Notes under the pieces: generated by a model
The model's input: the letters and a program-made list of their open reading frames with translations, nothing else
Told to the model about the DNA's origin: nothing
Databases searched by the model: none
In this document: one piece after another, positions 5,851 through 15,392 of the stretch
Layout of the letters: each line of letters starts with the position of its first letter
Numbering within the stretch: the stretch's first letter is position 1
Position numbers and translations under genes: made by a program
Assembly (NCBI RefSeq): GCF_000014785.1
Contig: NC_008340.1
Span: forward strand, 420,001 to 452,000
Source: Alkalilimnicola ehrlichii MLHE-1
Lineage (GTDB): Bacteria > Pseudomonadota > Gammaproteobacteria > Nitrococcales > Halorhodospiraceae
Length of the DNA: 32,000 nucleotides
Direction: 5' to 3'

Positions 5851-6027
5851 TGGATTCGCACAGAAGAGCGCGCTAGGTTTGGTGTAAACCAAGTACCAGC
5901 CCCGCTGCCGCCCCGACCGCCTGGAGAAGTGCACGAGCGGCAATGTAGGCCGAAACCATGAATGCCCCCAAGTGCGCCACCTCGCCACGTAACGCCGCGC
6001 CTTTCCGATATGGAAGTGACACCCCCA

Positions 6028-6233
6028 AAGGCAAGACCGGCAAGGCCGACTGGGCGCTGAGCCTGATCGGCAAGCTCTACCGCATCGAACGCGAGGGCAA
6101 GCCCCTCGATGCCGACGGCTGCCTGGCGCTGCGCCGGCCGCTGATCGACAAACTCCAGCGCTGGCTAGAGAAGTCCATCACCCAGGTGCCGCCGAAGACC
6201 GCCATCCGGCCCTTCGTGGTGGGCCGAAAAAAA
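6028..6233 (+). pseudogene. Relic of an IS66-family transposase (TnpC) C-terminal region, internally deleted and truncated
   Basis: It translates to KGKTGKADWALSLIGKLYRIEREGKPLD...PLIDKLQRWLEKSITQVPPKTAI/RPFVVGRK. This is near-identical to the TnpC segment encoded on the opposite strand at 6689-7008, but it lacks 36 codons and both ends. Confidence 0.8.
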
Positions 6234-6456
6234 CCGCCTCAGATGGTGATGCGCTAACACCGCAAAGTAGGCCGGCCGCACCGAGCAGCAGGCCGATGAC
6301 CAGCACCGTGCCGATGGGCGTCGCCCACGCCTGCTGGACCACCGGGGCCTGTTCCCCCAGCCATACGCGCCCGTCGCCACCACTGAAAGGCACCGGCCTG
6401 GTCCGGCTGAGGCTCCGGCTGACCACCATCGATCCCACGTAGGGCCTTCGATAAGG

Positions 6457-8029
6457 GTAAGCGGTCCACCCCGCCCACTTACCGAGCTCGGTCTCAGGCC
6501 TGTATGGTCTTCCCCCAGTTCCAGGGCAGCAGGGCTTGAATCGCCTGGTCGGTGTCCGCAGCCGGCAGGCGGGTGAGGACATCTTCCAAGTACTCGTAGG
6601 GCTCCAGCCCGTTGGCCTTGGCCGTCTCTATCACGCTGTAGATCATCGCGCTGGCCGCCGCGCCCTGGGTGGTGTGACTGAATAGCCAGTTTTTTCGGCC
6701 CACTACGAAAGGCCGGATGGCGTTCTCCGCCGGATTGTTATCCAGCGGGATGCGCCCATCATCGAGAAAGCGGGTCAGCCGGGGCCACTGGGTCTGGAGG
6801 TAGCGTAGGGCCTTGCCGATGGCGGTCTTCGGCGGCACCTGGGTGATGGACTTCTCCAGCCAGCGCTGGAGTTTATCGATCAGCGGCCGGCTCTGCTGCT
6901 GACGCAGTACCAGACGATCCTCCGGGTCCAGGGTTTTGCCTTCGCGTTCGACGCGGTAGAGCTTGCCGATCAGACTCAGCGCCCAGTCGGCCTTGCCGGT
7001 CTTGCCCTTGGGCTGGACCTTCTGGGCCTCGACAAACTTCCGCCGGGCATGCGCCCAGCAGCCGGCATGGGTGATGCCATTCTCCCGCACCACCTGGGCA
7101 TAGCCCTCGTAGCCGTCGGTAACCAGCACGCCGGCATAGTCGCCGAGCAGGCGCTGGGGGACCCGGCCGGAGCGGCTGGTGTCGTAGTCGTAGCGCACCA
7201 CCTGCTCACCGGGCGGACCACCGCGCTGGACCCACATGTAGGAGGTGCTGGAGGCCGTTCGCCCCGGCTCGGTGTTCACCTGGACCGTGGTCTCATCCAT
7301 GTGGATGAGCGGCTGGGCCAGTAGATGGTCCTGCAGGGCCTGCCCCAGCGGGGTGAGCAGCTCGCCGACGCCCACCATCCAGCGCGCCAGGGTGTTACGC
7401 GGCAGCGGGATGCCCTTGCGCTCGAAGCCCTTGGCCTGGCGGTAGAGCGGCAGCCCGTATTCGTACTTGGCGGTGGCGATGTAGGCCAGCAATCCGGGGC
7501 TGGCCATGCTCCGGGGCAGCGGTTGGGGCGGCATGCTTGCGGTGTGCACGCCTTCTTCGCAGCATCTGCAGGCGTACTTGCGGCGGATGTGGCGGCGGAC
7601 CTGCACCCGGGCGGGGATGACATCCAGTTGCTCGGTGACCTCTTCGCCGATGCAGGTCAGCTCGCTGCCGTCATGCGGGCAGTAGCGCTGTGCCTCGGGG
7701 ATATCGTGCACCACCTCGACCCGCGGCAGTTCCGCGGGCAGCCGCACGCGGCCGCCACGGTTCCGGCGCTTGGCCGGCACGCTCGGGGCCGTCTCGCCGG
7801 CTTGAGCGGCCTCTGCCTCCGGTTCGGTGACCGGTGCATCGGCATACTGCTCGGCCTCGTCGAACTGCAGTTGCTGCTGATCGACGTGGTAGCGTTCGGT
7901 GGAGGGGCCGAAACGGCTGTCGAGCAGCAGCCGGATCTGCTCGAACATGGAGCACTCGCGGGCAGCCCAGTGGGCTTCCTTGGTGGCCAACAGGGCGTCC
8001 TTTTCGGCGAGCTTTTTCTCCAGCTCAGC
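6457..8029 (-). mobile_element. IS66-family element, 5'-truncated (tnpC only; one terminal inverted repeat retained)
   Basis: The terminal GTAAGCGG... at 6457, 37 bp beyond the tnpC stop (6494), matches the GTAAGCG-type IS66 end. No matching ...CGCTTAC end, tnpA or tnpB is present on the other side, where the coding frame runs directly into intI sequence near 8030. Confidence 0.75.
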
Positions 8030-8578
8030 GACCTGACGCTGCAGGGGCGTGATCAACTCGTCGGCCAGTGTGACGACCCGATCCTTGCCACCCTTTCCCC
8101 GACGAACGAAGACGGCCCGGTGCCTGAAATCGACATCTTTCACTCTCAGTCGAACACTCTCCAGAAGCCGAAGTCCCGAGCCGTACTGCAGGCAGGCGAT
8201 CAACCAGTACGCCCCGGAGAGATTTGCAAGCAGCCGGGAGACCTCGTCGCGACTCAGTACAACCGGGAGCCGTTCCCGCCGTTTCGCTCGTACTGTGCCG
8301 CCAATCTCCCCGAGTGGTTGCTCAAGGACCTTCGAATACAGAAAGACCAGCGCGTTCAGTGCCTGATTCTGCGTCGCTGGGGCGACATGCCGCTCGACGG
8401 CCAGGTCGGTGAGAAACGCCCTCACCTGTGCCGCGCCCATCTCCCCCGGATGGCGCTTTCCGTGAAACAGGATATAGCGGCGAATCCATGTCAGATAGGC
8501 TTGTTCAGTGCGGATGCTATAGTGCCGAACCCGGATGGCATCACGTACCTGATCGAGAAACGGCGATCGTCTAGCCAT
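6494..8578 (-). CDS. Chimeric ORF: integron integrase N-terminal ~183 aa fused in frame to IS66 TnpC (~511 aa)
   Basis: ATG at 8578 is preceded by GGAGGAG. The IntI-like part ends near ...LITPLQRQV. From AELEKKLAEKDALL onward it reads as IS66 TnpC (RFGPSTER, zinc-finger CPHDGSEL...ACRCCEEG, DETTVQV, VTDGYEGY, CWAHARRKF, NPAENAIRPFVVGRKNWLF). The 55 codons upstream of this ATG in the track ORF are not supported. Confidence 0.7.
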   Translation of the reverse strand: MARRSPFLDQVRDAIRVRHYSIRTEQAYLTWIRRYILFHGKRHPGEMGAAQVRAFLTDLAVERHVAPATQNQALNALVFLYSKVLEQPLGEIGGTVRAKRRERLPVVLSRDEVSRLLANLSGAYWLIACLQYGSGLRLLESVRLRVKDVDFRHRAVFVRRGKGGKDRVVTLADELITPLQRQVAELEKKLAEKDALLATKEAHWAARECSMFEQIRLLLDSRFGPSTERYHVDQQQLQFDEAEQYADAPVTEPEAEAAQAGETAPSVPAKRRNRGGRVRLPAELPRVEVVHDIPEAQRYCPHDGSELTCIGEEVTEQLDVIPARVQVRRHIRRKYACRCCEEGVHTASMPPQPLPRSMASPGLLAYIATAKYEYGLPLYRQAKGFERKGIPLPRNTLARWMVGVGELLTPLGQALQDHLLAQPLIHMDETTVQVNTEPGRTASSTSYMWVQRGGPPGEQVVRYDYDTSRSGRVPQRLLGDYAGVLVTDGYEGYAQVVRENGITHAGCWAHARRKFVEAQKVQPKGKTGKADWALSLIGKLYRVEREGKTLDPEDRLVLRQQQSRPLIDKLQRWLEKSITQVPPKTAIGKALRYLQTQWPRLTRFLDDGRIPLDNNPAENAIRPFVVGRKNWLFSHTTQGAAASAMIYSVIETAKANGLEPYEYLEDVLTRLPAADTDQAIQALLPWNWGKTIQA
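8030..8578 (-). pseudogene. intI: Integron integrase, truncated (catalytic C-terminal half missing)
   Basis: LDQVRDAIRVRHYSIRTEQAYLTWIRRYILFHGKRHPGEMGAAQVRAFLTDLAVERHVAPATQNQALNALVFLY ... LQYGSGLRLLESVRLRVKDVDF ... RRGKGGKDR aligns along its length with IntI1-type integrases. It is divergent from an attI/attC cassette array. The second Arg, the His residues and the Tyr nucleophile are absent. Confidence 0.8.
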
Positions 8579-8597
8579 GGCGGCTCCTCCCTGAGTG

Positions 8598-8613
8598 CTG
8601 TATTTATATACAC
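8598..8613 (-). promoter_or_regulatory. LexA-box-like palindrome upstream of intI
   Basis: CTGTATTTATATACAC fits CTGT-N8-ACAG with an AT-only spacer and one mismatch (final C instead of G). It lies 20-35 nt upstream of the intI ATG, where SOS boxes of integron integrase promoters are found. Confidence 0.45.
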
Positions 8614-8799
8614 TAGCGTGAGACCTAGGGGTACGCAACCGGAGATGGGCGGACGCGTTCCCTCTATCGTGCAGGGTCCGGCCGCTTGGGGAAGCCTGCT
8701 GCGCAAAGCCAACTTGCTGGGTGGATGGAGAAATTACCGGCACACAGCGGTCTGTGGCACGCTAGGTCCGTGCGTGGAAAGGTGGCCTCCGTCCGTGTT

Positions 8800-8835
8800 T
8801 AAAACCGGAAACATTCCGTCTACTACCTGTTAGGC
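8800..8835 (+). other. attI region with crossover core G|TTAGGC (cut between 8829 and 8830)
   Basis: GTTAGGC at 8829-8835 is the exact reverse complement of the R'' core GCCTAAC (9177-9183) that ends the first cassette. It is located between intI and the first cassette ORF. The upstream extent of attI is not determinable by eye. Confidence 0.7.
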
Positions 8836-8858
8836 GAATGAAGTAAGGAGTTTCAACA

Positions 8859-9134
8859 ATGAGTGATTGTGAGTCCAGCCAATGGAGAGATGCGCTCGAA
8901 GCGGAGCTTAAGGCAACCGACAAGACCGATTTGGTGATTCCTTATGGTCAGATCGCTAAGGCTTTCCCTTCCTCGAATCCGCATCCTCGCACCTTTGAAC
9001 ATCCAATGATTGATGATGTCTCTCTGAGAAATTGGGGTTCTGAGAGGGGGTGGTGCATCGACTTGGCTTCGGAGATACTGCCCGAGGGTTCGGACTCTTT
9101 GCCGCCTGTCAGGTTCTACAAAGAACACCAGTAG
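8859..9134 (+). CDS. Hypothetical protein (cassette A, 91 aa)
   Basis: ATG is preceded by AAGGAG at a 9-nt spacing. It is the only sizeable sense ORF in a 440-bp cassette. No motif was recognised. Confidence 0.6.
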   Translation: MSDCESSQWRDALEAELKATDKTDLVIPYGQIAKAFPSSNPHPRTFEHPMIDDVSLRNWGSERGWCIDLASEILPEGSDSLPPVRFYKEHQ

Positions 9135-9176
9135 AGTGAGCTTGGTGTTTCCGCCGATCCTTAGCAGCTTCGGATC

Positions 9177-9275
9177 GCCTAACAAGTCGCTCAAGTTCGC
9201 TACGGCCCTGGCGGGCCTCCGCCGGACGGCTTTTCCGCTGCGCTCCAAAGCCGCCGCTTAGCTCAAACGTTAGCA
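9177..9275 (+). repeat. attC site of cassette A (~99 bp)
   Basis: R'' is GCCTAAC (9177) and R' is GTTAGCA (9269). An internal 7-bp stem CGGCTTT/AAAGCCG closes a TCCGCTGCGCTCC loop that is shared with the other attC sites. Confidence 0.8.
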
Positions 9276-9302
9276 ATACTCAGATTTTCAGGGAGAGTGT
9301 AA

Positions 9303-9713
9303 GTGTCTGGCCTCGTAGAAACCTTCAATATGACTTGCCAGGACGTTGCGTTACTTTGGACTTGTCCGGTTATCGCCGGAGCGGCCAGTTTGGTTAGGGG
9401 GTGGACTTCTGAGTTAGATCTAGTGAAACCCCCGGTATATGAAACCCTTAGTCCAGACGAAGAAGATAGAAAACCAAAACAAACCTCCGAAAATAAAAGA
9501 CAACGAAGCTACTGGGTAGTTGGGATGTTACTGGCCGGGGCAGGAATTGGTTTGGGCTTGGCTCTACTTTTCCTTGGGGCTATACAGCCAACAAGCAGTG
9601 CAGTTGGCAGAGTTTGGTTGCTAGCATTGGTCCTGGGCTATTCAACCCCAATAGTTCTCAAACAAATTGATGGCAAGGTCGAGAAGGCCATTGCTGAGGT
9701 CGACAAAATCTAG
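9303..9713 (+). CDS. Small membrane protein (cassette B, 136 aa; start uncertain)
   Basis: GTG at 9303 follows GGGAGAG; an alternative ATG is at 9330. There is one N-terminal and two C-terminal hydrophobic helices ([41 protein letters not shown]). The stop TAG abuts the R'' core. Confidence 0.55.
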   Translation: MSGLVETFNMTCQDVALLWTCPVIAGAASLVRGWTSELDLVKPPVYETLSPDEEDRKPKQTSENKRQRSYWVVGMLLAGAGIGLGLALLFLGAIQPTSSAVGRVWLLALVLGYSTPIVLKQIDGKVEKAIAEVDKI

Positions 9714-9785
9714 TGCTAACAAGGTGGTCAACGGGACGCCAACTACGCTGCGCTCCGTTGGTGCCCGTTACCACTGGCGTTAGCA
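9714..9785 (+). repeat. attC site of cassette B (72 bp)
   Basis: The site reads TGCTAAC-aag-GTGGTCAACGGG...TACGCTGCGCTCC...CCCGTTACCAC-tggc-GTTAGCA. The L''/L' arms pair with one bulged base. Confidence 0.85.
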
Positions 9786-9798
9786 AGAAGGAGCAAAG

Positions 9799-10680
9799 AT
9801 GGCCGTAGGAGATTGGTTCAGCACATTCTGTGGGAATATCAAGGTCAGTAATAAGGACTCAATATCAAGACGATATAAAGCTATTACAAGAAGACTGAAT
9901 ACTGATTTTTGGGATACAGTTTCTGACACTTCGCACAGTCTTTATGTCGGATCCTATGGTAGAAACACCGCCGTGGGGGGCTTTAGTGACCTTGATATGT
10001 TGTTTCGTTTGCCATATAGCGTCTACGAACGATACAACAATTATAATGGAAACGGCCAGTCTGCATTGCTCCAGGAAGTAAAGCGCTCCATAGAACGAAC
10101 CTATGCCACCACCAAGATTCGTGGTGACGGTCAAGTAATTCTGGTTCCATTTGATGATGGTCTCACTTACGAGGTTGTTCCTGCATTTGTTAATAAAGAT
10201 GATAGCTTCACCTATCCTGATGCAAATAATGGCGGCCGTTGGCGTACCACCAATCCAAAACCAGAAATTGAAGCAATCAGGACGAGGAACAACCAGTGTA
10301 ACAAAAACCTGATTTGGCTTTGTAGGATGATGCGTATTTGGAAAAGAAAATGGGATGTTCCGATAGGAGGCTTGCTGATAGACACGTTGGCCTACCAGTT
10401 TATTGAAAATTGGGAGTATAGAGATAAATCATTTGTGTACTATGATTGGATGTGTCGCGACTTTTTTAATTTTATGGCAAATCAGGATAAAACAAAGGAA
10501 TACTGGAAAGCCCCCGGTAGTGGTCAGTACGTTTATGGCAAAGATTTGTTCCAATGGAAAGCAAGACGTTGTTGCAATATCGCAATAGAGGCATGTAAGC
10601 ACGAGTCAGCAGACCCTAAACGTGAATGGTCAGCCAAACAGAGCTGGAGAGAAATTTTTGGAACCAAATTCCCAAACTAG
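9799..10680 (+). CDS. cGAS/DncV-like (SMODS family) nucleotidyltransferase
   Basis: AAGGAG RBS. The pol-beta NTase signature is GSYGRNTAVGGFSDLDMLF (GS...DxD), with a third acidic strand LTYEVVPAF. The helical C-terminal half (LCRMMRIWKRKW, GGLLIDTLAYQF) is typical of CD-NTases. It is paired with a SLATT gene. Confidence 0.8.
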   Translation: MAVGDWFSTFCGNIKVSNKDSISRRYKAITRRLNTDFWDTVSDTSHSLYVGSYGRNTAVGGFSDLDMLFRLPYSVYERYNNYNGNGQSALLQEVKRSIERTYATTKIRGDGQVILVPFDDGLTYEVVPAFVNKDDSFTYPDANNGGRWRTTNPKPEIEAIRTRNNQCNKNLIWLCRMMRIWKRKWDVPIGGLLIDTLAYQFIENWEYRDKSFVYYDWMCRDFFNFMANQDKTKEYWKAPGSGQYVYGKDLFQWKARRCCNIAIEACKHESADPKREWSAKQSWREIFGTKFPN

Positions 10681-11233
10681 CAATAAAGGACTGGCATACC
10701 TCGAAGAGCAGATTCGGGAGTGCTATGGCCGGGTCGTTTATTCGCATAAAACACATGAGAAATGCGCCGATATTCTTCTGAGTCGGCTTTCAAGTATAAA
10801 GATTGCACAAATTATATTGTCTGCGCTTAGTACAGCCGGTTTCGTTTCGATAATTTTTGGAACTGGGGAAGTTGGGGCGATTGCTGGCGGCTTAGTGTCG
10901 GTTGCATTACTTGTTCTGAATGGGTACACAAAAGATTACGACCTCGGTCAATTGGCGCAGAAGCATCGTCAAGCTGCTGCTGACCTCTGGCTGATTCGCG
11001 AGCAGTATCTCTCCCTTCTGACCGACTTGCGTTCCAATTCAAGCAGTGAAGATGAATTGCGAGAAAAGAGAGATGACTTATTAACCGAGTTGCATGCTCT
11101 TTATTCAGGTGCGCCCAGCACTAATTTTAAAGCATATAAAAAAGCACAAGAAGCCCTGAAGAACCTTGAAGATATGACTTTTTCCGATGAGGAAATTGAC
11201 GCATTTTTGCCAAAGAGTCTGAAAAAGTGCTAA
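10622..11233 (+). CDS. SLATT-domain two-transmembrane effector (start uncertain: GTG 10622 or TTG 10658)
   Basis: It overlaps the end of the NTase gene. GGAGAG lies 6 nt before TTG 10658. The ECYGRVVYSHKTHEKCAD motif is followed by two adjacent hydrophobic helices (IAQIILSALSTAGFVSIIF, AIAGGLVSVALLVLNGY) and a helical tail, as in SLATT proteins. The stop TAA lies inside the attC R'' core. Confidence 0.72.
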   Translation: MNGQPNRAGEKFLEPNSQTSNKGLAYLEEQIRECYGRVVYSHKTHEKCADILLSRLSSIKIAQIILSALSTAGFVSIIFGTGEVGAIAGGLVSVALLVLNGYTKDYDLGQLAQKHRQAAADLWLIREQYLSLLTDLRSNSSSEDELREKRDDLLTELHALYSGAPSTNFKAYKKAQEALKNLEDMTFSDEEIDAFLPKSLKKC

Positions 11234-11297
11234 CAAGTGGCTGTTGGCGGACGTGCCTACGCTTCGCTCCAGCACGCCGCAAAGTCAAGCGTTATAG
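11228..11297 (+). repeat. attC site of cassette C (70 bp)
   Basis: R'' is TGCTAAC (11228) and R' is GTTATAG (11291). The central stem is CGTGC/GCACG around CTACGCTTCGCTCC. Confidence 0.8.
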
Positions 11298-11325
11298 GTC
11301 ATCGTAGTCAAATAGGGATGTAGGC

Positions 11326-12441
11326 ATGAGGGAAGAAGAGAACGAAGAAGAAATCGATCTGCTCAGCGAGGAAGAACAGGCTGAGCGGGAAGAAAAGCTG
11401 GCGAAGCTAGAAAAAGAAAAGAAGGAGCTTTTGGCATCGTTGGCCGGAGGCGATTTCTCCACGCTGAAGACGAAAGTCGCCTATATCCTGAATTTGTACC
11501 CGCAGGCTCGCAACAGCGACATTACTCTATCAATAAAATACTGGGAAACTTTTCAGCCTGATATTTATAACGAATCGGGCATTCTCCCCAAGGACCTTTT
11601 TAAATTGGAAAGGTTGCACTACATAGTGCGCGCGAGAGCGAAAATTCAGAATGAATATGGCCTATTCACCTCTGACTCACCCGTAAAAAAATTCCGCAAG
11701 AAGCGTGAAGAGGAAATGCAGGATGAGGTTCTGAAAGACGCCAGCCCTCGGAAGGTTGTCACTGTCTTTGCCGACGAAACAGGTAAGAACCAAAACTATG
11801 TCGTTGTGGCCTCAGTCTGGGTTCTTACCGGAAGAGCGGTTTATACAATAAGCAAGAGCATCTTAGACTGGCAAAGCTCATCCCTATGGGCCAACAGAGA
11901 AATCCACTTCACAAAGTTTGGCAAAAGAGACAGTGACACGCTCGCTGAATATCTGAACATAATTCAGGCGAATCGTGAATTTTTAAGCTTTAAGGCTATA
12001 GCAGTAGAGCGCAGTCGCACAAAGCGAAAGATTGAAGCTGTTGTCGAGAAGCTGCACGAGCATATGCTCATAAATGGCGTAGAGCACGAGGTCGAACATC
12101 ATCGCATTAGCCCGCCTCAGACTATCAACGTTACTTTGGACGAAGAGCAGTCTTTAGATGCAATTACTCTCGCTGAGGTGAAACGTAGGGTTAATTCTCA
12201 TTTTGAAGACAGGTTTGGTGATGAGATGGCGATGGGCACGCTGGAATCGGTTTCTTCTCGAAAAAGCCCTATGGTGCAGCTTGCCGATCTCATCGCAGGC
12301 GCGATTAACCGAAGGCTTAACCACACCGGTGATAAAAACTACAAAGATGAGATGGCTGGCAGGGTTATTCACGCGCTAGATCTTCAGCTTGGTGAGGACG
12401 AGGTAGACGGAATTGATGTCACAACCTTATTCAAAATCTGA
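11326..12441 (+). CDS. DUF3800-domain protein with ~140-aa N-terminal extension
   Basis: 371 aa. The C-terminal two thirds carry the DUF3800 landmarks VTVFADETG (conserved D-E), REIHFTKF and MVQLADLIAGAI. The N-terminus is an acidic/lysine coiled-coil (EEENEEEIDLLSEEEQAEREEKLAKLEKEKKEL) plus a helical module (LYPQARNSDITLSIKYWE). Confidence 0.7.
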   Translation: MREEENEEEIDLLSEEEQAEREEKLAKLEKEKKELLASLAGGDFSTLKTKVAYILNLYPQARNSDITLSIKYWETFQPDIYNESGILPKDLFKLERLHYIVRARAKIQNEYGLFTSDSPVKKFRKKREEEMQDEVLKDASPRKVVTVFADETGKNQNYVVVASVWVLTGRAVYTISKSILDWQSSSLWANREIHFTKFGKRDSDTLAEYLNIIQANREFLSFKAIAVERSRTKRKIEAVVEKLHEHMLINGVEHEVEHHRISPPQTINVTLDEEQSLDAITLAEVKRRVNSHFEDRFGDEMAMGTLESVSSRKSPMVQLADLIAGAINRRLNHTGDKNYKDEMAGRVIHALDLQLGEDEVDGIDVTTLFKI

Positions 12442-12444
12442 CAC

Positions 12445-12516
12445 CTATAACCAATGCGTTAACGGGACTGGTTTTCCGCTAGCGCTCCAAACCAGCCCAT
12501 TACGCAGGCGTTGGGC
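12445..12516 (+). repeat. attC site of cassette D (72 bp)
   Basis: The site reads CTATAAC-caa-TGCGTTAACGGG-[CTGGTTT TCCGCTAGCGCTCC AAACCAG]-CCCATTACGCA-ggc-GTTGGGC. R'' is complementary to the cassette's first bases TTATAGG (11292). Confidence 0.85.
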
Positions 12517-12526
12517 TTAGAAGAGC

Positions 12527-13120
12527 ATGGACATTAATATCGCTGTCGCACTTATAGCCGGATCAATCACGGCCCTCGGTTGGTTAATAAACCACATATT
12601 GAACTCACGCAGAGAAGCAATACGTGTCGAAGTTCAAGAAAATTTGAATTTCACAAAAGAGCAACTGGAAAAGCTTTACGGTCCGTTGGCATTTGTAATA
12701 CTTGAAGGTAGACGAACTTGGTCTGACCTTTTGGCGGTCCTTGGGCGGGATATTGTCTTCGATGGAGCCAGTGAGATACCAGAAGACGAGCAAGAAATTT
12801 GGAGGTTCTGGGTTGAATACGAGTTCTTGCCAAGAAATAAGAGAATTCGTGACTTGTTGGAGTTGAATGCGCACCTTATAGAAGATGATGGCATACCACA
12901 GTCCTATTCCGATTTTATTGAGCACGAAAGTTCATGGAGGCTTAGATATGCTCGGTGGGAAAAGGAGGGAGGTGAGTATCCGTGGACTTCATCTACCAAC
13001 TGGCCAGACCACTTTGAGAACGATGTTCTGAATACATTTAGCCTTTTGAAGGCGCGGCAGCATAAGCTGAGCGGGTGTATTACGAAGATCGCCCAACAAG
13101 TAGCTCCAGCGGATTCGTAA
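12527..13120 (+). CDS. Hypothetical membrane-anchored protein (cassette E, 197 aa)
   Basis: It has one N-terminal TM helix (INIAVALIAGSITALGWLINHIL) and then a ~170-aa soluble Trp/Glu-rich region with no recognised motif. The RBS is weak. The last 10 codons overlap the attC R'' core. Confidence 0.55.
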   Translation: MDINIAVALIAGSITALGWLINHILNSRREAIRVEVQENLNFTKEQLEKLYGPLAFVILEGRRTWSDLLAVLGRDIVFDGASEIPEDEQEIWRFWVEYEFLPRNKRIRDLLELNAHLIEDDGIPQSYSDFIEHESSWRLRYARWEKEGGEYPWTSSTNWPDHFENDVLNTFSLLKARQHKLSGCITKIAQQVAPADS

Positions 13121-13146
13121 ACTCGCCGCTGAGCTTGGCGTTGGGC
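13091..13146 (+). repeat. attC site of cassette E (56 bp, minimal form)
   Basis: GCCCAAC (13091) pairs perfectly with GTTGGGC (13140). The inner arms AAG(tag)CTC(c)AGCGG / CCGCTGAGCTT pair with two bulges. It lacks the apical stem-loop module of the other sites. Confidence 0.8.
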
Positions 13147-13161
13147 AACACAGGGGGCTAG

Positions 13162-13544
13162 GTGGATCAGAAACGCCTTCCACAACTGATAGAAGAACTT
13201 TACCGCGTCGTGGGCGAGCTGGAGGCAATGTTCCCCGGCAGGCACTTCACCCCCGATGGTCATCTGGTTGGGAGCCTTGGCGAGTGTCTGGCGGCACACC
13301 ACTACGGCTTGGAACTGCTGACAGCCTCTTCCCCGGGCGTGGATGCCATAAAAGGCGAGCTGAAGGTCGAAATCAAGGCAACCCAAGGCCAACGCGTTGC
13401 GCTTCGGAGCGGCCCGGAGCACCTGCTGGTTCTCAAACTGAATAAGCGGGGCGGGTTCTCGGAGGTCTACAATGGCCCCGGCAGACCCGTCTGGAAAGAG
13501 CTGGAGCGTAAGCCACGGCCGAGTAATGGCCAGTACCAGGTCTC
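13162..13544 (+). pseudogene. PD-(D/E)xK-like nuclease-fold gene, 5' part (cassette F), interrupted by an IS
   Basis: GTG start after GGGGG. GSLGECLAAHH ... GVDAI ... KVEIKAT has the E / D / ExK spacing of restriction-endonuclease-like folds. The track ORF tail 13545-13671 is IS sequence. Confidence 0.55.
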
Positions 13545-13667
13545 CCAAGTTCCACACTTCAGATCGAAAACCCAAGGGGTTGTGGGACGTAAGTGCTTGA
13601 AGCGATTGATCTGCGCGGCCAGAACCAGCCAAGCCGCTGTTGTGTCACGCGAATCCTATACTGGCTA

Positions 13668-13695
13668 TTGATTGCAGGTCTCTGGGTGGCATAAT
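13668..13695 (+). promoter_or_regulatory. Candidate sigma70 promoter of the IS transposase
   Basis: TTGATT-16 nt-CATAAT, ending 9 nt before the transposase ATG region (ATG at 13704). Confidence 0.4.
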
Positions 13696-13703
13696 GTCAT
13701 GCC

Positions 13704-15392
13704 ATGTACACGCGCATCACAAAGTCCGGCCCGCGCCGCTATTTGCAGTTGGTCGAGGGCTACCGAGACGCCAACGGCAAGGTTAAACAGCGTGTGGTAG
13801 CCAGCCTGGGTCGCCTTGATCAGCTTGAGGCAGCCGACCTAGAGCCGCTCATCAAGGGACTCCAACGGGCGGTGGGGCGTCCTGAATCATTGCCTGAAGC
13901 GCCTCAGTTCGAGACCGCCCGCGCCTTTGGCGATGTGTGGACCCTCCATCAGCTCTGGCAGGAGTTAGGCCTGGATGGGGCCTTGAAACGGGCTCTGCGC
14001 TCCTCCCGACGACAGTTCGATGCCGAGGCACTCATCCGAGCCATGGTTTTCAACCGCCTCGCTGAGCCGAGCAGCAAACGCGGCACGCTGGAGTGGTTGC
14101 GCGAGAGCACCAGCATGCCCGGGCTCGATGCCTCGACCGTGCACCACGAGCAACTCCTGCGTGCCATGGATGCGTTGGAGGACCACAAGGAGGCCGTGGA
14201 GCGTGCGGTAGCCGGCCAGTTGCGGCCGCTGCTTGACCAGGATCTCAGCGTCATCTTTTACGATCTCACCACGGTACGCATCCACGGCACCCATGCGATG
14301 GAAGACGATATCCGTCAGCATGGCCTCAGCAAGGACACCGCCGGTATTGGCCGCCAATTTGCGCTGGGGGTGGTCCAGACTGCCGAAGGCCTGCCGATCG
14401 CCCACGAGGTCTTCGAGGGGAATGTCGCCGAGACGCGCACCCTGGCCCCAATGATTGAACGTCTGCTGGAGCGTTTCGCGCTCGCCCGCGTGGTGGCGGT
14501 CGCCGACCGCGGCCTGCTCAGCTTCGATAACATCGACACTCTGGAGGCACTGGGCGTCGAGCAGGGGCTGGCGGTCGACTACATTCTGGCTGTACCCGCC
14601 CGGCGTTACGGGGACTTCACCGAGGTGATGGAGTCTCTGCATACGCAACTGGAAACCGCCGTCACCGAGCCTAGTCAGGACGTGGTGACCGAAACCACCT
14701 GGCAGGGCCGACGCCTGGTGGTGGCCCACAATGCCGAACGGGCCGCCGAGCAGAGCGCGCAGCGTCGGCAGACCATCGAAGAGCTTGACGCCCTTGGTGC
14801 CCAACTCGCCGAGCGACTCGATAATCAGGATGCTGGCCAGCCCGGTCGTGGGCGGCGTTCCACAGACCGTAGTGCCTACCAGCGCTTCCACAAGGCCGTG
14901 CTGGAGAGGCGCATGAGCGCGATCATCAAGGCCGATCTCGGCTCGCCGCAATTCAGCTACACCATCGATGAGCCCGCCTGGGCGGCTGCCGAACGTCTGG
15001 ACGGCAAGCTACTGCTGGTTACCAGCCTCACCGACATGGGGGCGGAAGCCGTGGTAGAGCGTTACCGCTCCCTGGCCGATATCGAGCGTGGATTCCGGGT
15101 ACTCAAGAGCGAGATTGAAATCGCGCCGGTCTACCACCGGCTGCCGGAGCGCATTCGGGCGCACGCGTTGATTTGCTTCCTCGCGCTGGTGCTCTACCGG
15201 GTCTTGCGCGGGCGCCTCAAGGCCGCCGGCAGCGCCTGCTCACCGGAAAAGCTGCTACGGAGCCTGCGGCAAATCCAGCGGCACACGGTGCGTGTGGGTA
15301 GCCGCGCCTACGAAGGGCTTACCCGACCCAACCAGGAACAGCTGGACCTTTTCGAAGCCGCCGGCGTGGAGGTTCCGAAGGCCCCTCGTTGA
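13704..15392 (+). CDS. IS1634-family DDE transposase
   Basis: 562 aa. The N-terminus MYTRITKSGPRRYLQLVEGYRDANGKVKQRVVASLGRLD is characteristic of IS1634-type transposases. The DDE context is VIFYDLTT, AVADRGLLS and YRSLADIERGFRVLKSEIEIAPVYH. Confidence 0.88.
   Translation: MYTRITKSGPRRYLQLVEGYRDANGKVKQRVVASLGRLDQLEAADLEPLIKGLQRAVGRPESLPEAPQFETARAFGDVWTLHQLWQELGLDGALKRALRSSRRQFDAEALIRAMVFNRLAEPSSKRGTLEWLRESTSMPGLDASTVHHEQLLRAMDALEDHKEAVERAVAGQLRPLLDQDLSVIFYDLTTVRIHGTHAMEDDIRQHGLSKDTAGIGRQFALGVVQTAEGLPIAHEVFEGNVAETRTLAPMIERLLERFALARVVAVADRGLLSFDNIDTLEALGVEQGLAVDYILAVPARRYGDFTEVMESLHTQLETAVTEPSQDVVTETTWQGRRLVVAHNAERAAEQSAQRRQTIEELDALGAQLAERLDNQDAGQPGRGRRSTDRSAYQRFHKAVLERRMSAIIKADLGSPQFSYTIDEPAWAAAERLDGKLLLVTSLTDMGAEAVVERYRSLADIERGFRVLKSEIEIAPVYHRLPERIRAHALICFLALVLYRVLRGRLKAAGSACSPEKLLRSLRQIQRHTVRVGSRAYEGLTRPNQEQLDLFEAAGVEVPKAPR

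Follow-up and report, generated by a model that had tools for sequence, protein, structure and literature searches.

A putative two-gene CBASS operon of the CD-NTase/SLATT_4 type carried as one integron gene cassette in Alkalilimnicola ehrlichii MLHE-1

The short integron in the chromosome of the haloalkaliphile Alkalilimnicola ehrlichii MLHE-1 carries, as the third unit of its array, two overlapping genes for a predicted nucleotidyltransferase and a predicted small membrane protein, and this raises the question as to whether a complete signalling-based anti-phage system can be packaged in a single gene cassette. The window referred to throughout is the 32,000-nucleotide stretch that was analysed (contig NC_008340.1, positions 420,001 to 452,000 of the forward strand), and coordinates are given within it. 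We propose that the segment at 9780..11291 (+) is, with good probability, a minimal type I operon of the anti-phage signalling system that is based on cyclic oligonucleotides (CBASS), packaged as one promoterless integron cassette. The genes correspond to ABI55738, annotated as 'SMODS domain-containing nucleotidyltransferase', and ABI55739, annotated as 'SLATT domain-containing protein', and literature searches by accession and by organism returned nothing specific to this locus.

The two genes and the cassette that contains them

Gene 1 (9799..10680, +) codes for a predicted nucleotidyltransferase of the cGAS/DncV-like group (CD-NTase) and of the SMODS type, 293 aa long, with a Shine-Dalgarno sequence AAGGAG (9788..9793, +) located 5 nt before its ATG. 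The product matches the full length of Pfam SMODS (PF18144; positions 1-164 of 164, 2.5e-57, 194.1 bits against a cut-off of 26.5) as well as the PADLOC CBASS cyclase model PDLC00786 (293/293, 7.8e-147). It contains the motifs GSYGRNT (from residue 51), DLD (64-66) and YEVVPAF (from 124), and the putative catalytic residues G51-S52 (9949-9954), D64 (9988-9990), D66 (9994-9996) and E125 (10171-10173) are invariant in an alignment of 37 homologues that are 73-84 % identical. An initial annotation, made from the sequence, had recognised the polymerase-beta signature and had remarked on a Glu at the third acidic position; both are found. Among the best 120 database matches the VPA motif is found in 94, and nearly all of these keep the Glu, as [TS][FY]E[VI]VPAF. 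That the Glu might be a defect was considered and rejected, since it is invariant across the subfamily, and judged from these alignments E125 is a family trait.

The best solved relative of the cyclase is the CdnD enzyme of Pseudomonas aeruginosa (PDB 6p82/6p8u), found with the single sequence over residues 24-292 (E 1e-9), and E125 aligns with the third Asp of Pa-CdnD (the ...SVDAVPAF strand). A profile of the 37 homologues extends the match with 6p82 to residues 3-292 (E 2.4e-13), and with this profile the solved structures rank with CdnD entries at the top (2.4e-13 and 3.4e-6), followed by CdnD02 (5e-3) and, at a clear distance, CdnE (0.05-0.6). On this ranking of solved structures the cyclase looks clade-D-like and closest to the clade D enzymes, and nucleotide synthesis is its predicted activity. 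The same protein is encoded identically on a 3.26-Mb chromosome, CP183314.1 (GCA_049262545.1), at ~517-538 kb.

Gene 2 (10658..11233, +) begins with a TTG codon and encodes a predicted SLATT_4 two-transmembrane effector of 191 aa. A longer open reading frame (ORF) opens at 10622, and the initial annotation had accordingly given the overlap with gene 1 as 23-59 nt. The homologues are 191-193 aa long with the N-terminus MEP[HN]SQ, and the NCBI product is also 191 aa, from which we place the start at TTG 10658 and the overlap at 23 nt; the lower of the two figures is thus retained and the start at 10622 is dropped. A ribosome-binding site, GGAGAG (10646..10651, +), precedes this TTG by 6 nt and is contained in the 3' end of gene 1. 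The product matches Pfam SLATT_4 (PF18186) over 165/165 positions (7.2e-75, 250.7 bits against a cut-off of 27), NCBIfam SLATT_4 (157.8 bits, cut-off 55) and, at full length, the PADLOC 2TM effector model PDLC00696 (3.4e-84). After the SLATT motif ECYGRVVYSHKTHEKCAD come two hydrophobic helices, scoring 2.02 and 1.86 on the Kyte-Doolittle scale in 19-residue windows, that make up the transmembrane hairpin (10802..10927, +; residues ~49-67 and ~69-90, with a GTGE turn between them). An AlphaFold model of the protein is all-helical, with a mean predicted local distance difference test score (pLDDT) of 71 and helices at 7-66 and 71-93, and the hairpin is flanked by conserved cytosolic helices.

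The two genes are thus adjacent and co-oriented, and the overlap together with the internal ribosome-binding site before the start of gene 2 suggests that their translation is coupled. No match to Cap2, Cap3, HORMA, TRIP13 or any other CBASS accessory protein was detected among the neighbouring cassettes with Pfam and PADLOC. The family-model searches that the initial annotation had put forward as a check gave SMODS and SLATT_4 scores far over the cut-offs, and its description of a CD-NTase/SMODS and SLATT pair, with a two-helix transmembrane hairpin in the second protein and without accessory genes, is borne out.

The limits of the cassette can be defined to the base. It is 1512 bp long and ~95 % coding, with G|TT crossovers at 9779|9780 and 11291|11292. 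The attC site of the preceding cassette (9714..9785, +) has an R'' box TGCTAAC and an R' box GTTAGCA, and its last six bases (9780-9785, TTAGCA) are the 5' end of the CBASS cassette; its bottom strand folds into a canonical hairpin (-18.6 kcal/mol, z -2.97), with 1/200 shuffled sequences equally good. The cassette's own attC (11228..11297, +) has R'' TGCTAAC and R' GTTATAG, the bases at 11292-11297 belonging to the next cassette, and the stop codon of the SLATT gene (TAA, 11231-11233) sits within R''. In its in-array form this site folds poorly, which is expected since the next cassette makes its R' box a hybrid. When the site is rebuilt with the TTAGCA from 9780, it reaches -15.0 kcal/mol (z -2.6, 3/300 shuffles as good), with a paired 8-bp R stem and a bulged L stem. 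Two other attC sites of the array, besides the upstream one, also form canonical bottom-strand hairpins, with z-scores of -3.0 to -3.8 overall.

In-array R' boxes are hybrids, and for this reason scans requiring an RYYYAAC box or an R box paired in the minimum-free-energy structure missed most true sites; they were replaced by a closure test with three parts. It looks for a GTT core at a distance of 8-90 nt upstream of the start codon, for at least 6/7 complementary bases between the 5' end of the cassette and the R'' box at the stop codon, and for a reconstituted site that forms a single hairpin, with shifted positions as controls. The window cassette passes, with complementarity of 7/7 between R'' TGCTAAC and the G plus 5' TTAGCA. 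Its GC content is 43.8 %, against 70.2 % in the flanks. We conclude that 9780-11291 is a genuine integron gene cassette. The initial annotation had likewise described a single AT-rich foreign cassette between two attC sites, third in its array, and this agrees with the exact crossovers, with the GC values, with the third position after the attI core and with the finding of the cassette or its relatives bounded by attC sites elsewhere. Excision and integration of the unit by IntI is a predicted capacity.

Mechanism, expression and rival explanations

By analogy with characterised type I CBASS operons, phage infection would activate the cyclase through some cue and lead to synthesis of a cyclic oligonucleotide, which would bind the conserved cytosolic helices of SLATT_4. 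The effector would then oligomerise and permeabilise the inner membrane, and the cell would be killed or arrested before phage release. We infer from these precedents that the pair may act by abortive infection through membrane disruption.

The integron that contains the cassette is preceded by ribD-ribE-ribBA-ribH-nusB-thiL and a methyltransferase gene and followed by pgpA. The array starts at an attI-type core GTTAGGC (8829..8835, +), ~250 bp from the divergent intI start, and contains six cassettes, of which the CBASS pair is the third. The integrase gene is truncated: only the N-terminal ~195-200 residues are encoded (7976..8578, -), matching TIGR02249 at 4.1e-70 over model positions 1-187 of 315 and Pfam Phage_integrase over positions 3-101 of 172, after which IS66 domains follow. 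These belong to a transposase of the IS66 insertion-sequence (IS) family, which is fused to intI in frame (6494 to about 7975, -). The resulting chimeric ORF (6494-8743, -) is 749 aa long, and the NCBI annotation has a single 569-aa coding sequence. In 5851-6493, past the IS66 element, no 3' remnant of intI was detected, and beyond the fusion there is a second, degenerate and inverted IS66 transposase fragment (5958-6257, +). In tyrosine recombinases the catalytic tyrosine is close to the C-terminus, and because the C-terminal catalytic half has been lost we regard the resident integrase as inactive. It follows that the CBASS cassette can leave its place as third in the array only through an integrase acting in trans. 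The earlier description of the unit as mobilisable consequently holds for its cassette structure, and in trans only, the resident intI having lost its catalytic half to IS66.

The leader of the cassette is 19 nt long, which leaves no room for a promoter inside it, and we infer that the pair is transcribed from upstream, either from a promoter near intI/attI or by read-through across cassettes 1 and 2. A scan of 8200-13700 for promoters and terminators gave chance-level counts and no Pc candidate, and showed no + strand terminator-like site between attI and the CBASS cassette; the scan is a simple one, and promoters of high-GC hosts may escape it. Of the proposal that the cassette is promoterless and depends on its position for expression, the first half fits the short leader, and the upstream promoter it calls for was not located in the scan.

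Several observations count against the assignment as a functional type I CBASS. The gene 1 product scores 114.5 bits with NCBIfam CBASS_cyclase_b, under the 200-bit equivalog cut-off. An AlphaFold model of the cyclase, built on the 37-sequence alignment, is poor (pLDDT 58.8); the structural comparison with Foldseek that the initial annotation had proposed gave TM-scores of 0.2-0.37, and although the top matches are all CD-NTases (CdnD, CdnC, CdnE, CdnG, DncV and cGAS) this agreement is qualitative only because of the low confidence of the model. A PDB sequence search with SLATT_4 gave no match and Foldseek returned only generic helical bundles, all at E > 0.03; because SLATT_4 has no neighbour in the PDB, nucleotide binding and pore formation by this effector are conjecture, and the label in the literature for SLATT proteins remains 'predicted pore-forming toxins'. 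No sigma-70-like site above chance lies between intI and the cassette, and with intI truncated the cassette may be silent in its host. Finally, the locus and the SLATT_4 subfamily are known from sequence alone, and the tested precedents are related operons and the brc135 cassette, so that the functional reading would be one by analogy.

The most substantial rival follows from the point about expression. The cassette could be a bona fide CBASS module that is stored, unexpressed, in this strain of A. ehrlichii as a 'biobank' item, and we take this seriously while not leaning towards it. The promoterless leader, the third position and the chance-level scan all agree with it, as does the decay of the integron, with intI truncated by IS66 and the array end cut by an IS4-family element. 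Moreover, protection by chromosomal integron cassettes has been found to need an active promoter upstream, and was validated with cassettes moved to first position (Darracq et al., 10.1101/2024.07.02.601686). However, both ORFs are intact and every conserved residue is kept in spite of a GC content ~26 points below that of the host, read-through from attI would meet no terminator-like site, and a simple scan may overlook promoters of a high-GC host.

Two further readings concern function rather than expression, and both seem very improbable. In one, a constitutively made nucleotide keeps the SLATT_4 pore closed, and phage sponges or nucleases release it, an inverse 'guard' or decoy logic as in Panoptes. 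The two-gene architecture and the absence of a sensor domain would fit such a scheme, and Panoptes is a precedent for a minimal cyclase with a transmembrane effector (PMC12657218), although nothing in the sequence points to inverse logic. The Panoptes cyclase, however, is of the mCpol and not the SMODS CD-NTase kind, the text of the Panoptes paper never mentions SLATT (0 occurrences; PMC12657218), and type I CBASS operons of the SMODS type, where tested, are classical infection-activated systems (10.1101/2023.05.21.541620). The other reading, to which we give equally little credence, places the pair outside defence, as an addiction or stabilisation module of the array or as a pair that signals membrane stress and has nothing to do with phage. 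Among the 'defence' matches of integron arrays toxin-antitoxin pairs are the commonest, and they keep the cassette repertoire stable as well; addiction is also conceivable, in principle, for a membrane-toxic effector that an enzyme controls. Against this, the family has dedicated CBASS models in PADLOC, relatives outside integrons lie in defence islands, as in Marinobacter shengliensis beside a Type ISP restriction enzyme and an Mrr nuclease, and both the tested type I CBASS operons (10.1101/2023.05.21.541620) and brc135 (10.1101/2024.07.02.601719) protect against phage. A minimal type I CBASS operon remains the reading that we favour.

The other cassettes of the array are as follows. Cassette 1 (8830-9269) is the first after attI. 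Cassette 2 (9270-9779) contains an ORF (9303-9713) for a 136-aa protein with hydrophobic stretches, whose sole match is phrog_15254 (5.7e-08). Cassette 4 (11292-12510) encodes a 371-aa DUF3800 protein (11326-12441) with matches to PDC-M04A (6.2e-13), a candidate defence family of PADLOC, and to phrog_3732, with relatives of at least 90 % identity in Marinobacter and Halomonas, and it is probably a second defence-type cassette. The 197-aa product of cassette 5 (12511-13140, ORF 12527-13120) has no match in Pfam, NCBIfam, PADLOC or PHROGs. Cassette 6 (13141 to about 13700) codes for a DUF6998 protein (13162-13671) related to phrog_35225 (8.5e-30), with a weak PADLOC match to a methyl-directed type II restriction enzyme (2e-4); it lacks an attC because an IS4-family transposase gene (13704-15392, DDE_Tnp_1, 562 aa) truncates the 3' end of the array. 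All five complete cassettes have a GC content of 44-54 %, against 70 % for the genome. The attC sites of the array are heterogeneous (56-99 nt, with a mean column identity of 49 %), unlike the uniform sites typical of old sedentary chromosomal integrons, and for this reason the cassettes look to be recent acquisitions from lower-GC donors.

Relatives of the pair and their association with integrons

Relatives of the cyclase are numerous, with 5922 at E <= 1e-10 among clusters at 90 % identity. The best 120 of these, almost all of them 293 aa long, are 73-99 % identical and come from Gammaproteobacteria, Gemmatimonadota, Deltaproteobacteria, Anaerolineae and Bacillota; the cluster (at least 90 % identity) to which the A. 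ehrlichii cyclase itself belongs includes Marinomonas, Halomonas, Salinivibrio, Vibrio furnissii and Flexistipes. Halomonas sp. NO4 has a 95 % identical closed cassette between attC sites, with a 3' attC nearly identical to that in the window, and in Wenzhouxiangella an 80 % identical copy is a closed cassette with a different attC. The V. furnissii copy (locus L015; LKHS01000027.1, 4142-5680) is 95 % identical and has near-same attC, with R'' mutated to GCTAGC, and it fails the closure test despite the kept attC; possibly it is a cassette left behind outside any array. A GTTAGCA core is present upstream of this copy, with no recognisable attC before it, and its neighbours are a hipBA-like pair (helix-turn-helix and HipA domains) and a 122-aa integrase fragment. 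The M. shengliensis copy in its defence island is 82 % identical and without attC. We also considered that the cassette circulates on sequenced plasmids or mobile integrons, and rejected this, as a search of sequenced plasmids and phages found no relative above 60 % identity.

For around 20 of the best 120 cyclase matches the longest contig measures ~1.5-1.7 kb, which is the length of a single cassette. The metagenomic unitigs of ~1.5 kb that were sampled (L016-L018) are single attC-bounded cassettes in 3/3 cases, and in these three the contig ends at or inside an attC. This suggests that the assembly graphs break at attC, or close into a cycle, the cassette being present in several contexts.

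A larger sample consists of 80 metagenome loci together with genome loci, 91 in total, of which 77 have a complete pair and 71 enough flanking sequence for the closure test. It is made up of the closest relatives only, such that the fractions apply to this sub-lineage and are not those of SMODS-SLATT systems in general. Closed attC cassettes are found at 20/71 testable loci and at 0/284 shifted control positions. They are 1507-1568 bp long and have 17 distinct attC sequences of 53-120 nt, which fall into about a dozen unrelated types. In the dereplicated set of 72 pairs, GTTAG is present 10-40 nt upstream of the start codon in 35 (chance 1.3 %) and an xGC-TAA-C end in 29 (chance 0/1440), with both boundary signatures in 26 pairs and at least one in 38. 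The 23-nt gene overlap occurs in 53/77 related pairs, and the coding boundaries are constant in the lineage, with a leader of 17-30 nt and the stop codon inside R''.

The xGC-TAA-C ending has an unusual organisation, in that the last sense codon of the SLATT gene and its stop codon together form the attC R'' box (11228-11234 in the window). It is present in 18/20 closed cassettes (for example at loci L019, L029, L032, L035, L046, L047 and L097). The first base of R'', which has to pair with the last base of R', therefore decides whether SLATT ends in Cys, Gly, Ser or Arg.

With boundary signatures at about half of the sampled close relatives, intact cassettes at a quarter, varied attC sites and fixed coding boundaries, the whole lineage of 293-aa SMODS and 191-aa SLATT_4 proteins may be integron-borne, having diversified as a cassette, with the defence-island copies being decayed ex-cassettes; this we advance tentatively, as a possibility that falls short of probable. 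If it were true, integrons would be a main vehicle of nucleotide-signalling immunity in environmental bacteria, and a compact pair that is 73-84 % identical across phyla would open a way to an effector fold not yet characterised and perhaps to a new signal.

Relationship to known systems

The pairing of a SMODS nucleotide synthetase with a two-transmembrane 'pore-forming' SLATT effector is the same as that in the SMODS-SLATT conflict systems reportedly predicted computationally by Burroughs et al. in 2015, a study that is said to have coined both names and to have had integron carriage outside its scope; in architecture there is no difference. Among solved enzymes, P. aeruginosa CdnD (PDB 6P82/6P8J/6P8U) aligns with the window cyclase over its full length, including the GS and DxD motifs, the third acidic position and the C-terminal helical lobe, although the relation is distant at the E-values given above and Pa-CdnD has Asp where the window family has Glu. 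Pa-CdnD comes from what we take to be a HORMA/TRIP13-regulated type III operon with a nuclease effector.

Closer parallels in gene content are the type I CBASS operons EcCdnF04-SLATT6 and EcCdnD12-4TM, which give strong phage defence in E. coli (Richmond-Buccola et al., 10.1101/2023.05.21.541620), where cyclases of clades D, E and F with effectors of two or four transmembrane segments form the commonest type I layout. Like them, the window pair is a two-gene operon of a CD-NTase and a small membrane effector without Cap2, Cap3, HORMA or TRIP13; unlike them, its effector is SLATT_4 rather than SLATT6 or 4TM, and its cyclase has no AGS-C fusion.

Among integron cassettes, the CBASS-I-like brc135 protects against free phage HK544 and against induction of an HK544 prophage (Kieffer et al., 10.1101/2024.07.02.601719). 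By its description it too is a two-gene cassette for a nucleotidyltransferase and a membrane protein; it originates from the INTEGRALL gcu collection, whereas the window cassette resides in the chromosomal integron of a haloalkaliphile. In the survey of sedentary chromosomal integrons by Darracq et al. (10.1101/2024.07.02.601686), 73 % of the defence cassettes are from Vibrio and the commonest are PfiAT, Shedu, AbiV and PD-T7-4, while the main text does not treat CBASS as a type of cassette. The window cassette resembles those in being a streamlined system of two genes or fewer in a chromosomal integron, with position-dependent expression as the proposed control, and differs in belonging to a short array whose attC sites are heterogeneous and which no longer has a functional integrase.

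The cassette provides a clean and fully delimited example of a putative signalling-based anti-phage system in one unit, with its 19-nt leader, 23-nt overlap and stop codon within attC. At 1.5 kb it can be directly synthesised, which would give access to the signal of this cyclase lineage, to the phage trigger and to the structure and mechanism of SLATT_4. It leaves the current understanding of CBASS and of integrons unchanged. Type I CBASS with SLATT effectors is already published, as are defence systems in integron cassettes, including the CBASS-I-like two-gene brc135 in 2024. The cassette supports the recent view of integrons as phage-defence stockpiles and extends this beyond Vibrio to a haloalkaliphile and many metagenomic lineages, and what is modestly new in relation to these systems is the family-wide link between a compact CBASS lineage and integrons.

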